From Escherichia coli (GTDB lineage Bacteria > Pseudomonadota > Gammaproteobacteria > Enterobacterales > Enterobacteriaceae), in NCBI RefSeq assembly GCF_024223415.1, contig NZ_CP100500.1: a DNA stretch of 64,000 nucleotides; one strand, given 5' to 3'. Each line of letters opens with the position of its first letter. Position 1 is the stretch's first letter. Below, piece after piece: positions 3,790 to 27,771 of this stretch. The translations under genes were made by a program, and so were the position numbers. The notes under the pieces are model-generated. The model saw only the letters and a list, made by a program, of their open reading frames with translations. It had not been told where the DNA came from and ran no database searches.

Positions 3790-4499
3790 AAATTGAATTA
3801 ACGGTGAATGGGCTGAACGTGCAAGCGCAGTACCATGATGAAGAGATAGAACGCGTGCATAAACCGTTGCTGCGTATGCTGGCGGCCTTACAGACGGTAA
3901 ATCCGCAGCGCCGAACCGTGGTTTTTCTTTGCGCTCCGCCGGGGACGGGGAAATCTACCCTAACCACCTTCTGGGAATACCTCGCGCAACAAGACCCGGA
4001 ACTGCCCGCTATTCAGACGCTGCCGATGGATGGTTTTCACCATTACAATAGCTGGCTGGATGCGCATCAATTGCGCCCCTTCAAAGGCGCACCAGATACA
4101 TTCGATGTGGCGAAACTGGCGGAAAATCTGCGCCAGGTAGTGGAAGGGGATTGTACGTGGCCGCAATACGATCGACAAAAGCATGATCCGGTTGAAGATG
4201 CGTTGCACGTTACCGCACCACTCGTCATCGTCGAAGGAAACTGGTTGTTGCTGGACGACGAGAAGTGGTGCCAGCTTGCGCAATTTTGTGATTTCTCGAT
4301 CTTTATCAACGCGCCAGCTACTGCGTTGCGGGAACGACTGGTAGGGCGCAAGCTGGCGGGAGGGGTATCGCTGGCAGATGCAGAAGCTTTTTATGACCGT
4401 ACCGACGGGCCGAATGTTCGCCGGGTGCTGGAAGAGAGTCTGCCTGCAAATTTGACTTTAATGATGACCGCTACGGGTGAATATCGTCTGGTGGATTAA
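3786..4499 (+). CDS. yggC: P-loop nucleoside/pantothenate-kinase-like protein
   Basis: 237-aa ORF with Walker A motif PPGTGKST; overlaps yggD stop. Confidence 0.85.
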   Translation: MKIELTVNGLNVQAQYHDEEIERVHKPLLRMLAALQTVNPQRRTVVFLCAPPGTGKSTLTTFWEYLAQQDPELPAIQTLPMDGFHHYNSWLDAHQLRPFKGAPDTFDVAKLAENLRQVVEGDCTWPQYDRQKHDPVEDALHVTAPLVIVEGNWLLLDDEKWCQLAQFCDFSIFINAPATALRERLVGRKLAGGVSLADAEAFYDRTDGPNVRRVLEESLPANLTLMMTATGEYRLVD

Positions 4500-8987: not shown

Positions 8988-10151
8988 ATGTCTGTAATTA
9001 AGATGACCGATCTGGATCTTGCTGGGAAACGTGTATTTATCCGTGCGGATCTGAACGTACCAGTAAAAGACGGGAAAGTAACCAGCGACGCGCGTATCCG
9101 TGCTTCTCTGCCGACCATCGAACTGGCCCTGAAACAAGGCGCAAAAGTGATGGTAACTTCCCACCTGGGTCGTCCTACCGAAGGCGAGTACAACGAAGAA
9201 TTCTCTCTGCTGCCGGTTGTTAACTACCTGAAAGACAAACTGTCTAACCCGGTTCGTCTGGTTAAAGATTACCTCGACGGCGTTGACGTTGCTGAAGGTG
9301 AACTGGTTGTTCTGGAAAACGTTCGCTTCAACAAAGGCGAGAAGAAAGACGACGAAACCCTGTCCAAAAAATACGCTGCACTGTGTGACGTGTTCGTAAT
9401 GGACGCATTCGGTACTGCTCACCGCGCGCAGGCTTCTACTCACGGTATCGGTAAATTCGCTGACGTTGCGTGCGCAGGCCCGCTGCTGGCAGCTGAACTG
9501 GACGCGCTGGGTAAAGCACTGAAAGAACCTGCTCGCCCGATGGTGGCTATCGTTGGTGGTTCTAAAGTATCTACCAAACTGACCGTTCTGGACTCCCTGT
9601 CTAAAATCGCTGACCAGCTGATTGTTGGTGGTGGTATCGCTAACACCTTTATCGCGGCACAAGGCCACGATGTGGGTAAATCCCTGTACGAAGCTGACCT
9701 GGTTGACGAAGCAAAACGTCTGCTGACCACCTGCAACATCCCGGTTCCGTCTGATGTTCGCGTAGCAACCGAGTTCTCTGAAACCGCTCCGGCTACCCTG
9801 AAATCTGTTAACGACGTGAAAGCTGACGAGCAGATCCTGGATATCGGTGATGCTTCCGCTCAGGAACTGGCTGAAATCCTGAAGAATGCGAAAACCATTC
9901 TGTGGAACGGTCCGGTTGGCGTGTTCGAATTCCCGAACTTCCGCAAAGGTACTGAAATCGTGGCTAACGCTATCGCAGACAGCGAAGCGTTCTCCATCGC
10001 TGGCGGCGGCGACACTCTGGCAGCAATCGACCTGTTCGGCATTGCTGACAAAATTTCCTACATCTCCACTGGCGGCGGCGCATTCCTCGAATTCGTGGAA
10101 GGTAAAGTACTGCCTGCAGTAGCGATGCTCGAAGAGCGCGCTAAGAAGTAA
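8988..10151 (+). CDS. pgk: phosphoglycerate kinase
   Basis: Starts [25 protein letters not shown], 387 aa; GAGAGG Shine-Dalgarno upstream. Confidence 0.95.
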
Positions 10152-10158
10152 AAAATCA

Positions 10159-10186
10159 CAGGGCAGGGAAACCTGCCCTTGTTTCA
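10159..10186 (+). terminator. hairpin after pgk (agggcagg gaaa cctgccct) with short T tract
   Basis: Inverted repeat read directly from sequence. Confidence 0.5.
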
Positions 10187-10227
10187 GCGCGCTTTTAGAG
10201 CACGCATTTTTTCATACTCTAAATAAT

Positions 10228-10340
10228 TCGAGTTGCAGGAAGGCGACAAGAGAGTGAATCCCCAGGAGCTTACATAAGTAAGTGACTGGGGTGAGCGAAC
10301 GCAGACGCAGCACATGCAACTTGAAGTATGACGAGTATAA
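10228..10340. repeat. ERIC/IRU intergenic repeat
   Basis: Contains GTGAATCCCCAGGAGCTTACATAAGTAAGTGACTGGGGTGAGCG, matching the ERIC core (ERIC1R/ERIC2 primer sites) as I remember it. Confidence 0.8.
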
Positions 10341-10365
10341 GGCCCGACGATACAGGACAAGAGAC

Positions 10366-11445
10366 ATGTCTAAGATTTTTGATTTCGTAAAACCTGGCGT
10401 AATCACTGGTGATGACGTACAGAAAGTTTTCCAGGTAGCAAAAGAAAACAACTTCGCACTGCCAGCAGTAAACTGCGTCGGTACTGACTCCATCAACGCC
10501 GTACTGGAAACCGCTGCTAAAGTTAAAGCGCCGGTTATCGTTCAGTTCTCCAACGGTGGTGCTTCCTTTATCGCTGGTAAAGGCGTGAAATCTGACGTTC
10601 CGCAGGGTGCTGCTATCCTGGGCGCGATCTCTGGTGCGCATCACGTTCACCAGATGGCTGAACATTATGGTGTTCCGGTTATCCTGCACACTGACCACTG
10701 CGCGAAGAAACTGCTGCCGTGGATCGACGGTCTGCTGGACGCGGGTGAAAAACACTTCGCTGCTACCGGCAAGCCGCTGTTCTCTTCTCACATGATCGAC
10801 CTGTCTGAAGAATCTCTGCAAGAGAACATCGAAATCTGCTCTAAATACCTGGAGCGCATGTCCAAAATCGGCATGACTCTGGAAATCGAACTGGGTTGCA
10901 CCGGTGGTGAAGAAGACGGCGTGGACAACAGCCACATGGACGCTTCTGCACTGTACACCCAGCCGGAAGACGTTGATTACGCATACACCGAGCTGAGCAA
11001 AATCAGCCCGCGTTTCACCATCGCAGCGTCCTTCGGTAACGTACACGGTGTTTACAAGCCGGGTAACGTGGTTCTGACTCCGACCATCCTGCGTGATTCT
11101 CAGGAATATGTTTCTAAGAAACACAACCTGCCGCACAACAGCCTGAACTTCGTATTCCACGGTGGTTCCGGTTCTACTGCTCAGGAAATCAAAGACTCCG
11201 TAAGCTACGGCGTAGTGAAAATGAACATCGATACCGATACCCAATGGGCAACCTGGGAAGGCGTTCTGAACTACTACAAAGCGAACGAAGCTTATCTGCA
11301 GGGTCAGCTGGGTAACCCGAAAGGCGAAGATCAGCCGAACAAGAAATACTACGATCCGCGCGTATGGCTGCGTGCCGGTCAGACTTCGATGATCGCTCGT
11401 CTGGAAAAAGCATTCCAGGAACTGAACGCGATCGACGTTCTGTAA
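10366..11445 (+). CDS. fbaA: fructose-bisphosphate aldolase class II
   Basis: Starts MSKIFDFVKPGVITGDDVQKVF, 359 aa; the track ORF N-terminal extension runs through the ERIC repeat and is rejected. Confidence 0.95.
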   Translation: MSKIFDFVKPGVITGDDVQKVFQVAKENNFALPAVNCVGTDSINAVLETAAKVKAPVIVQFSNGGASFIAGKGVKSDVPQGAAILGAISGAHHVHQMAEHYGVPVILHTDHCAKKLLPWIDGLLDAGEKHFAATGKPLFSSHMIDLSEESLQENIEICSKYLERMSKIGMTLEIELGCTGGEEDGVDNSHMDASALYTQPEDVDYAYTELSKISPRFTIAASFGNVHGVYKPGNVVLTPTILRDSQEYVSKKHNLPHNSLNFVFHGGSGSTAQEIKDSVSYGVVKMNIDTDTQWATWEGVLNYYKANEAYLQGQLGNPKGEDQPNKKYYDPRVWLRAGQTSMIARLEKAFQELNAIDVL

Positions 11446-11470
11446 GATATTCCTTTCTGCTTATCTCAAG

Positions 11471-11494
11471 GCCCGCTCTGCGGGTCTTTTTTTT
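11471..11494 (+). terminator. rho-independent terminator of epd-pgk-fbaA
   Basis: cccgc-tct-gcggg hairpin followed by T8. Confidence 0.8.
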
Positions 11495-11509
11495 GCCAAA
11501 AGAAAAATT

Positions 11510-11610
11510 GCCTGATGCGCTACGCTTATCAGGCCTACACGTATCCTGCAATATATTGAATTCGCAGGTTTTTGTAGGCCGGATAAGGCGTTCACGCCGC
11601 ATCCGGCATG
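11510..11610. repeat. BIME: two REP palindromic units in opposite orientation
   Basis: gcctgatgcgctacgcttatcaggcctac and gtaggccggataaggcgttcacgccgcatccggcatg. Confidence 0.8.
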
Positions 11611-11638
11611 ACAAAGCGCACATTGATATCTGTCTGAG

Positions 11639-11661
11639 CCCCGCTCTGCGGGTCTTTTTTT
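11639..11661 (+). terminator. second copy of the fbaA terminator hairpin plus T7
   Basis: Near-identical cccgctctgcgggtcttttttt repeated about 165 bp downstream of the first copy, on the far side of the BIME. Confidence 0.6.
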
Positions 11662-11803
11662 CGCCAAAAGCAAGGTGATACAGATGAGAAATCTGTGATC
11701 TATTTGGCAAAATTATGCTTTATTGTTTACCCTTGTCAGACTGCCCGTCATAAGGCGGCGGAGTGTATTTCTCCATTTTGAGTCAGTTGAAAAGGAATAT
11801 TGA

Positions 11804-26764: not shown

Positions 26765-26905
26765 TAAAGCCCTCACCGAAGCGAGGGCTTGAAGGAGAAG
26801 GGTTATGATGCGACTTGTCATCATACTGATTGTACTGTTACTCATAAGTTTCCCAGCTTATTAACAGTCAGTCTCAGGGGAGGAGTCATCCTCCCTTACC
26901 CTTAC
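26765..26905 (-). ncRNA. sibC: Sib antitoxin sRNA antisense to ibsC (ends approximate)
   Basis: Minus-strand sigma70-like promoter TTGACA (26940-26935), 18-nt spacer, TAATTT (26916-26911) downstream of the ibsC stop; known ibs/sib architecture. Confidence 0.55.
26805..26864 (+). CDS. ibsC: type I toxin, Ibs-family hydrophobic peptide (19 aa)
   Basis: atgatgcgacttgtcatcatactgattgtactgttactcataagtttcccagcttattaa encodes MMRLVIILIVLLLISFPAY; GAAGGAGAAG Shine-Dalgarno upstream; below the length cutoff of the ORF track. Confidence 0.75.
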   Translation: MMRLVIILIVLLLISFPAY

Positions 26906-26964
26906 TCACTAAATTAGGTTAAAGAATCAACGATGTCAATCAGGGCGATGCAGGTGTGTCGCCC

Positions 26965-27585: not shown

Positions 27586-27771
27586 AGGGAATCTCCGAGA
27601 TGCCGCCGCAGGCTGTAACCCTTGAACCCTTGGTTCAAGGTGAATGTGTCGTCGCAGTTTTAAGGCTTCTCGGACGGACCGAGCATGCTCACCAACCGCG
27701 GAGCGCCACATTCTTGTGGTATGAAATATCGGCTCAGGGGACTGGCCCGCTTGCGAACATCTCAGAGAAAT
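27586..27771 (-). ncRNA. ssrS: 6S RNA
   Basis: Reverse complement of AUUUCUCUGAGAUGUUCGCAAGCGGGCCAGUCCCCUGAGCC...GGCAUCUCGGAGAUUCCCU matches over the whole length. Confidence 0.9.

Follow-up and report, generated by a model that had tools for sequence, protein, structure and literature searches.

The spacer between pgk and fbaA in Escherichia coli contains a repeated palindrome within the transcript of a glycolytic operon. This locus raises the question of what the palindrome is, how old its insertion is, and whether it affects the RNA in which it lies. The DNA analyzed here is a 64,000-nt stretch of an E. coli chromosome (contig NZ_CP100500.1), referred to as the window. ERIC (or IRU) repeats have been known since 1990–91, and we know of no transposase for them. 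We find that the pgk-fbaA spacer holds one full-length ERIC/IRU element, an ordinary and already catalogued representative of its family.

Identity and boundaries of the element

The element spans positions 10213–10339 (+ strand, forward orientation, 127 nt), as delimited by consensus alignment, fold, covariation, and the empty sites of relatives. Within it lies the 44-nt core GTGAATCCCCAGGAGCTTACATAAGTAAGTGACTGGGGTGAGCG (10254–10297, + strand), which matches the ERIC core at 44 of 44 positions and reads GTGAATCCCC...GGGGTGAGCG on the transcribed strand. The core has a single match in the 64-kb window, against a chance expectation of 0 (100 shuffles). These 44 nt are contained in the published ERIC consensus as quoted in PMC2759123 and correspond to the ERIC1R/ERIC2 primer region.

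Two references were taken from Table 1a of Delihas 2007 (PMC2759123): the 127-nt E. coli consensus of Wilson and Sharp 2006 and Salmonella SeRU-1. The element matches the E. coli consensus in 115 of 129 columns, with one compensating pair of 3-nt indels, and SeRU-1 in 117 of 126, ungapped; both alignments run from the first base to the penultimate base. All mismatches to the E. coli consensus fall outside the core, and with the core excluded the match is 71 of 85 columns for the E. coli consensus and ~79 of 82 for SeRU-1. A first-pass annotation of the window had placed an ERIC/IRU core in the fbaA 5′ leader and had regarded poor alignment outside the core as grounds for giving up this assignment. 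The core proves to be exact, the alignment extends end to end, and the match is good outside the core as well. The extent proposed at that time, 10228–10340, does contain an ERIC, but it starts 15 nt too far into the element and runs 1 nt past its end.

The left terminal inverted repeat (10214–10237, + strand) includes an A/U-rich stretch, CUCUAAAUAAUUCGAG; its 24 nt are 79% complementary to the right terminal inverted repeat (10315–10338, + strand). The arms of the inner hairpin of the core lie at 10260–10273 and 10278–10291. The element ends in TA on the right and in CA on the left, where the outermost base is C and not T. TA occurs at both ends in 31 of the 59 full-length copies collected below, and the empty sites of relatives carry a single TA or CA. 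The element agrees with classic ERIC/IRU in its length of 127 nt, exact core, terminal inverted repeats, long hairpin, right-hand TA, and dispersed copies, and it is extragenic and transcribed, as these elements are, lying in a spacer within one operon. The reading of CA for the left TA is a difference, and nothing essential differs. All sequence-level marks of ERIC/IRU are thus present, with the TA duplication alone ambiguous because its left copy reads CA. Among subfamilies, the window copy is of the E. coli/Salmonella SeRU-1-like type (...GCAGACGCAGCACATGCAAC...) and not of the majority consensus (...GCAGCCAACGCA...).

Since the family is long described, the K-12 copies are catalogued, and the K-12 element is identical to that of the window over its whole length, the pgk-fbaA element counts as already known. 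About 20 K-12 copies have been catalogued (19–21 cited in PMC2267715), and our literature search found no paper naming fbaA together with ERIC.

We also compared the element with Rfam at permissive and gathering thresholds, and no family reached threshold. The model of Vibrio RNA AS5 (RF02818, V_AS5; model positions 1–129) aligns end to end to 10212–10331 on the + strand (E 1.9e-6), but membership was rejected, as the score of 38.9 bits is below the gathering score of 96; a match to BSnc120 was due to chance. The partial likeness to V_AS5 fits the ERIC homologs reported in Vibrio cholerae (PMC2267715).

Organization of the pgk-fbaA spacer

The upstream gene of the operon, pgk (8988–10151, + strand, 387 amino acids), was assigned by translation, tblastn, and the RefSeq annotation of the identical K-12 locus, and fbaA (10366–11445, + strand, 359 amino acids) by RefSeq WP_000034372.1 on identical sequence. 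The spacer from the pgk stop (10151) to the fbaA ATG (10366) is 214 nt in length. Over positions 10052–10466, identity is 100% to strain SCU-316 and 99.5% to K-12.

A GC-rich hairpin is located 3′ of the pgk stop (10160–10179, + strand) and consists of a perfect 8-bp inverted repeat, AGGGCAGG-GAAA-CCTGCCCT, which is kept with compensatory changes across 11 enterobacterial spacers. It is followed by a second small hairpin (10187–10205), identified from folds and an inverted repeat, and a U6 tract (10207–10212); this segment (10187–10212, + strand) ends where the ERIC inserted. On the other side of the element is the native fbaA leader (10340–10365, + strand), which lies outside the ERIC hairpin and carries the Shine-Dalgarno sequence AGGA (10354–10357). 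Its 26 nt are identical in E. albertii (0 of 26 differ). In the fold of the whole spacer, the ERIC forms an independent module after the two small post-pgk hairpins, and neither the Shine-Dalgarno sequence nor the AUG is in its stem. A direct effect of the element on fbaA translation would not be expected, since 26 nt separate the end of the predicted hairpin from the start codon and the ribosome-binding site is left accessible.

A separate inverted repeat of 17 nt (88% complementary) relates the last pgk codons (10126–10142) to the spacer (10186–10202). This pairing would enclose the pgk stop codon and the first hairpin, with the U6 tract directly 3′, and it dominates the single-sequence fold (−51.1 kcal/mol, z −5.8). 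It resembles a composite terminator that might be opened by translating ribosomes. Because the pairing is absent from the RNAalifold consensus over 11 genera, we keep it as an unconfirmed side observation.

Downstream of fbaA (11462–11672), two near-identical terminator segments, ...GCCCGCTCTGCGGGTCTTTTTTT.GCCAAAAG, occur at ~11470–11503 and 11630–11672, with a REP/BIME cluster between them (~11505–11610); Term-seq 3′ ends follow both segments in K-12. The REP cluster also contains a match to Rfam ES036/CssrF (11531–11573, − strand) that scores 42.5 bits, the gathering score being 37.6. Elsewhere in the window are 6S RNA (ssrS; 27588–27771, − strand, 139.8 bits) and a Sib antitoxin RNA (26789–26939, − strand, 136.5 bits), both expected for this part of an E. 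coli chromosome.

Reading frames that cross the element

The list of mechanically called open reading frames extends fbaA to 10282–11445, and the first-pass annotation had attributed the additional N-terminus to the repeat. This explanation is correct: the GTG start at 10282 is inside the element, and the RefSeq ATG is at 10366. The spurious extension comprises 28 codons, or 84 nt (10282–10365, + strand), 58 of which are within the ERIC. Its GTG falls in the descending arm of the core hairpin, after an in-frame TAA in the loop (10279–10281), and its peptide, VTGVSERRRSTCNLKYDEYKARRYRTRD, precedes MSKIFDF. Homologs of fbaA start at MSKIFDF in all 80 loci examined, and the RefSeq start is equivalent to 10366.

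On the opposite strand, an open reading frame (10184–10360) gives a peptide of the published RU-1 type (YTRHTSSC...NSNYLEY; compare PMC2759123). We rejected it as a peptide gene, as it runs antisense to an operon with high expression and a scan of 9700–10500 showed no promoter. These two mechanical frames warn against calling genes or small RNAs from frames that cross an ERIC.

Folding and covariation of the family

The + strand of the element folds as one long imperfect hairpin (−48.9 kcal/mol, z −5.8); the antisense strand gives −40.9 kcal/mol (z −4.05). Metagenome contigs scanned for the core yielded 122 copies, of which 59 are non-redundant, full length, and at distinct sites, and the resulting alignment has 60 sequences. 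In this alignment, 95.7% of pair cells hold standard pairs, and 21 of the 31 pairs show compensatory two-sided changes (8.0 ± 1.6 in shuffles). As a control, partners were slid by 1–3 columns, upon which pairing fell to 32–42%.

The alignment also bears on which strand is kept paired. Among the 60 copies, read in forward orientation and with the part fixed by the search pattern excluded, G-U/U-G cells number 115 and A-C/C-A cells 14. This excess of G-U over A-C shows that it is in RNA of the forward strand that pairing is maintained. Between co-directional open reading frames, 19 copies are forward and 7 reverse, counts that rest on crude calls of reading frames and on phylogenetically non-independent copies. 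The pgk-fbaA copy is forward. This strand asymmetry suggests that selection on pairing acts on the forward-strand RNA.

Copies in E. coli and other contexts

Of 5426 complete E. coli genomes, 5417 have the element-bearing spacer at a coverage of 80% or more. ERIC-like places detected by blastn number 11 per E. coli genome at the median and 19 at most, and the 122 metagenomic copies have 95 distinct flank pairs. The pgk-fbaA copy is 94–99% identical to ten copies elsewhere, and its nearest paralogs in E. coli lie between cusC and cusF (99.2%) and between ybhI and ybhJ (98.4%). Five divergent E. coli strains differ from the window at 2–3 positions within the element, and these polymorphisms sit in the core and include a 1-nt deletion at 10260.

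Two metagenomic contigs depart from the usual arrangement. Contig Ga0308159_1002189 (L154, 148–581) carries 3.4 head-to-tail copies with a period of 126 nt and 95% matches, a tandem array unlike the usual dispersed single copies. In contig OKVW01000499.1 (L149), the ERIC at 9536–9662 has the left flank of the pgk side (ACGCATTTTTTC) and the right flank of the ybhI-ybhJ spacer (TTTACAGCATGT). Such flanks probably result from chimeric assembly across the repeat, with recombination between two ERICs as the less likely source.

Insertion history

We scanned one genome per species, which gave 80 fbaA loci; spacers of Salmonella, Klebsiella, Shigella, and E. fergusonii are not among them. No ERIC is present in the pgk-fbaA spacer in ~30 sampled enterobacterial genera, the exceptions being Escherichia, Citrobacter sp. 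FP75, and one soil metagenome-assembled genome (MAG). Spacers lacking the element are 62–162 nt long, and those of the closest Enterobacteriaceae 66–109 nt. The polymorphism of presence and absence that the first-pass annotation had proposed as a check is thereby found across enterobacteria, with the element nearly universal in E. coli and the site empty in these other genera. Clean empty sites, TTTCCA|AGGCC being one example, mark this position in other genera: Citrobacter werkmanii and Kluyvera have ...CCCTTTCCA|AGGCCGAAGATACAGG, Enterobacter cloacae has ...TTTTCTA|ACGGCC, and Phytobacter has ...TTTTTTA|AGGCCCGACG. The element inserted at the TA (or CA) that closes the U-rich tract 3′ of the second post-pgk hairpin.

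The spacer of E. albertii is 142 nt in length and has lost 72 nt, equivalent to 10231–10302 of the window. In the remnant (2919–2974 of L073, corresponding to window 10213–10339), the core is gone, and both terminal repeats are retained and can still pair. As E. albertii keeps these arms, the insertion is older than the split between E. coli and E. albertii. The surviving arms differ between the two species at 3 of 55 positions and the left part of the spacer at 7 of 61; the divergence at four-fold degenerate sites is 9.4% for pgk and 7.3% for fbaA. Since the divergence of the arms is close to that of the four-fold sites, this sequence comparison, which has low power at 55 sites, gives no sign of constraint on the arms beyond roughly neutral change. 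Any effect of the element is dispensable, as it is absent in most relatives and its inner hairpin is lost in E. albertii.

The two other lineages with an ERIC at this locus, Citrobacter sp. FP75 (L003, 2848–2974) and the soil MAG (L013, 2848–2973), have it in the same position and the same orientation. The FP75 element is 75.6% identical to the E. coli copy and belongs to a different subfamily (TACACAAAATCA...GGATGAxGTGTA); 43 of the 59 other copies are nearer to the window copy than it is. That FP75 carries an ERIC of another subfamily while the site in Citrobacter werkmanii is clean and empty suggests either independent insertions at one TA, which would be a hot spot, or homogenization within genomes by concerted evolution.

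Much of this history would also suit an element without any function. Under such a reading, the insertion would be no more than a neutral fossil, and bulk decay would leave the RNA 3′ end described below as a by-product without consequence for Pgk or FbaA. The empty orthologous spacers of ~30 genera, the deletion of the inner hairpin in E. albertii, the change of the arms at about the four-fold rate, and the polymorphisms in the core of E. coli copies all favor a neutral fossil. Its fixation in 5417 of 5426 E. coli genomes counts against this to some degree, although fixation is also expected of a neutral element.

Transcription and RNA 3′ ends

A scan of 9700–10500 found no sigma-70-like promoter, and the element was rejected as a promoter donor for want of a promoter-like site in that range. 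Olvera et al. 2009 detected no transcription start by 5′RACE of the 214-nt spacer and concluded that fbaA relies on upstream promoters (PMC2759082). Together, the 5′RACE result and the lack of a promoter-like site indicate that the ERIC is co-transcribed in the pgk-fbaA RNA.

RNA 3′ ends were taken from the curated Term-seq table of MG1655 in Adams et al. 2021 (PMC7815308 Supplementary file 1). The 'primary' 3′ end of pgk (K-12 3071427, − strand) was recorded in two of three conditions with a peak score of ~46000 (PMC7815308); its 61-nt tag maps uniquely in the window to 10133–10193, which places the end of the pgk mRNA at 10193 (+ strand). A second, 'orphan' 3′ end (K-12 3071314, − strand) was recorded in all three conditions, LB at OD 0.4, LB at OD 2.0, and M63 glucose, with peak scores of 24316, 48771, and 35983, respectively, of the same order as the pgk end (PMC7815308). 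Its tag maps uniquely in the window to 10246–10306, and the end thus lies inside the ERIC at 10306 (+ strand), 10 nt past the last pair of the inner hairpin (10295–10296) in the predicted fold. The 61-nt tag includes a base private to this copy (10251), and read mapping in repeats is delicate. In the same table, a 3′ end is listed in the forward ERIC between aceF and lpd (K-12 127845, + strand), 67 nt before lpd and in two conditions, and none is listed in any reverse-oriented ERIC (PMC7815308). The aceF-lpd element of K-12 may be compared with that at 4023–4149 of L090. That the end at 10306 occurs in three conditions supports participation of the ERIC in the processing or decay of pgk-fbaA RNA, an influence that the first-pass annotation had raised as a possibility.

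How the end at 10306 might arise can be narrowed down. RNase E favors A/U-rich sites. A direct cut by this enzyme is unlikely, since the bases around the end (CAGAC|GCAGC) are not rich in A/U. Intrinsic termination is unlikely as well, since neither the inner nor the outer stem is followed by a U-tract; a terminator scan found none on the + strand in the element, and its only call was the pgk hairpin on the minus strand. The end lies ~10 nt downstream of a GC-rich stem-loop, where stalled 3′ exonucleases leave an end, and we infer that it arises in this way.

These observations also bear on whether the ERIC could be an attenuator or terminator that sets the read-through from pgk into fbaA. In favor of such a device, the untranslated spacer forms a very stable hairpin, inside which a 3′ end has been mapped. 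The missing U-tracts and the empty + strand scan speak against it, as does the abundant expression of fbaA with no promoter detected in the spacer. Moreover, a coordinate search of the supplementary files of PMC7815308 found no spacer entry outside the Term-seq list, so that the Rho-termination table appears to be without any for this spacer. We regard attenuation or termination by the ERIC as very improbable.

A protective cap for the downstream message has to be weighed too. The ompA 5′ stem-loop protects from 5′-end-dependent RNase E attack. By analogy, an endonuclease might cut at the U-rich 10206–10213, and the ERIC hairpin would then shield the 5′ end of the fbaA mRNA. Single-stranded AUUUUUUCA between hairpin 2 and the ERIC stem would offer a site, the stem begins within a few nucleotides of it and leaves the ribosome-binding site free, and fbaA is highly expressed, with a strong 3′ end of its own listed (PMC7815308). 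On the other hand, the end at 10306 implies that at least some RNA molecules are cut or trimmed within the hairpin, an event that would do away with the cap, and relatives do without the element. Protection of fbaA in this manner is thus improbable in our estimation.

A very strong 'internal' Term-seq 3′ end is also present in the 3′ part of epd (K-12 3072734, − strand), ~100 nt 5′ of pgk (8988); its distance to pgk is −112 in the table and ~−102 by coordinate conversion. This end fits published work on the processing of the epd-pgk transcript by RNase E.

A possible role in RNA decay

On balance, we consider it probable that the ERIC is a fixed, immobile copy whose local effect is mainly on RNA decay, with the inner hairpin blocking exonucleases and giving rise to the 3′ end at 10306. 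According to this scheme, the element would have inserted at a TA just 3′ of the U-tract after the terminator-like hairpins of pgk, before E. coli and E. albertii separated. Being promoterless, it would be transcribed in the forward direction within the pgk-fbaA message, and its RNA would form a long imperfect hairpin with a GC-rich inner stem-loop. The weaker outer stem would be opened or cut first, and the inner hairpin would then halt 3′-to-5′ exonucleases. Transcripts carrying pgk, or intermediates of their decay, would build up with a defined 3′ end at 10306. This end may in turn alter the output of Pgk or FbaA, or it could be a decay intermediate without an effect on expression.

The neutral fossil introduced above differs from this in attaching no consequence to the end. 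A reproducible 3′ end with peaks comparable to that of the pgk terminator argues against pure passengership, though a 3′ end would also be expected of a neutral hairpin, and so do the orientation-dependent effects of ERICs in Yersinia, as far as these are related in later papers (see below). We take a purely passive element to be a serious possibility but not a likely one.

Comparison with ERICs of Yersinia and with REP elements

ERICs of Yersinia alter the stability of co-transcribed RNA in an orientation-dependent manner (De Gregorio et al. 2005, as summarized in PMC2229807, PMC3184786, and PMC10969869). By these summaries, one orientation exposes an RNase E site, and the other has been suggested to stabilize upstream RNA (PMC2229807, PMC3184786, PMC10969869). 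As described there, the Yersinia elements resemble the pgk-fbaA copy in being co-transcribed between operon genes, forming an RNA hairpin, and being associated with RNA ends. The destabilizing orientation in those accounts is next to a stop codon, with the RNase E site in the right-hand repeat, whereas 61 nt separate the pgk stop from the pgk-fbaA element, whose A/U-rich arm is on the 5′ side. Based on the position of this arm and the 61-nt distance, the pgk-fbaA copy would, by analogy, be in the non-destabilizing orientation, for which a stabilizing role was suggested only. An exonuclease barrier at the inner hairpin would agree with this suggestion.

The element considered here shares with REP/BIME an intercistronic repeated palindrome whose hairpin would set a stable upstream 3′ end. 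REP elements are barriers to 3′ exonucleases that stabilize upstream mRNA, with malE-malF as the paradigm. The two families are unrelated, and REP units are ~35–40 nt long and do not form one 127-nt inverted repeat. Assignment of the region itself to REP/BIME was rejected: it aligns to ERIC over the full 127 nt and, when read directly, is unlike the REP units at 11505–11610.

Implications

This analysis corrects the boundaries of the pgk-fbaA ERIC and adds a comparison with empty sites, a deletion derivative in E. albertii, an ERIC of a different subfamily at the same site in two other lineages, and the connection of the element with a Term-seq 3′ end inside it that had been published but gone unremarked.

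A more general pair of propositions may be drawn from these data, that the TA after the pgk terminator is a hot spot for ERIC insertion and that the inner hairpin of forward copies generally determines RNA 3′ ends in E. coli. We put these forward jointly as speculation and rather doubt that both hold. If the first were true, different ERIC subfamilies would have inserted independently and in the same orientation in the Escherichia lineage, FP75, and the soil MAG, and the target would be chosen by local structure (the 3′ edge of a terminator) and not by TA alone. If the second were true, the hairpin, as in pgk-fbaA and aceF-lpd, would tune the ratio of upstream to downstream products in highly expressed operons of central metabolism, or, alternatively, a stable ERIC-core RNA would be released.

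The pgk-fbaA locus offers a tractable case, in a glycolytic operon of K-12, where an RNA 3′ end has been mapped to a hairpin derived from a repeat. Regulatory effects of ERICs have so far been studied by experiment mainly in Yersinia, and this locus could serve to test regulation by ERICs in E. coli, where a small effect would be expected.
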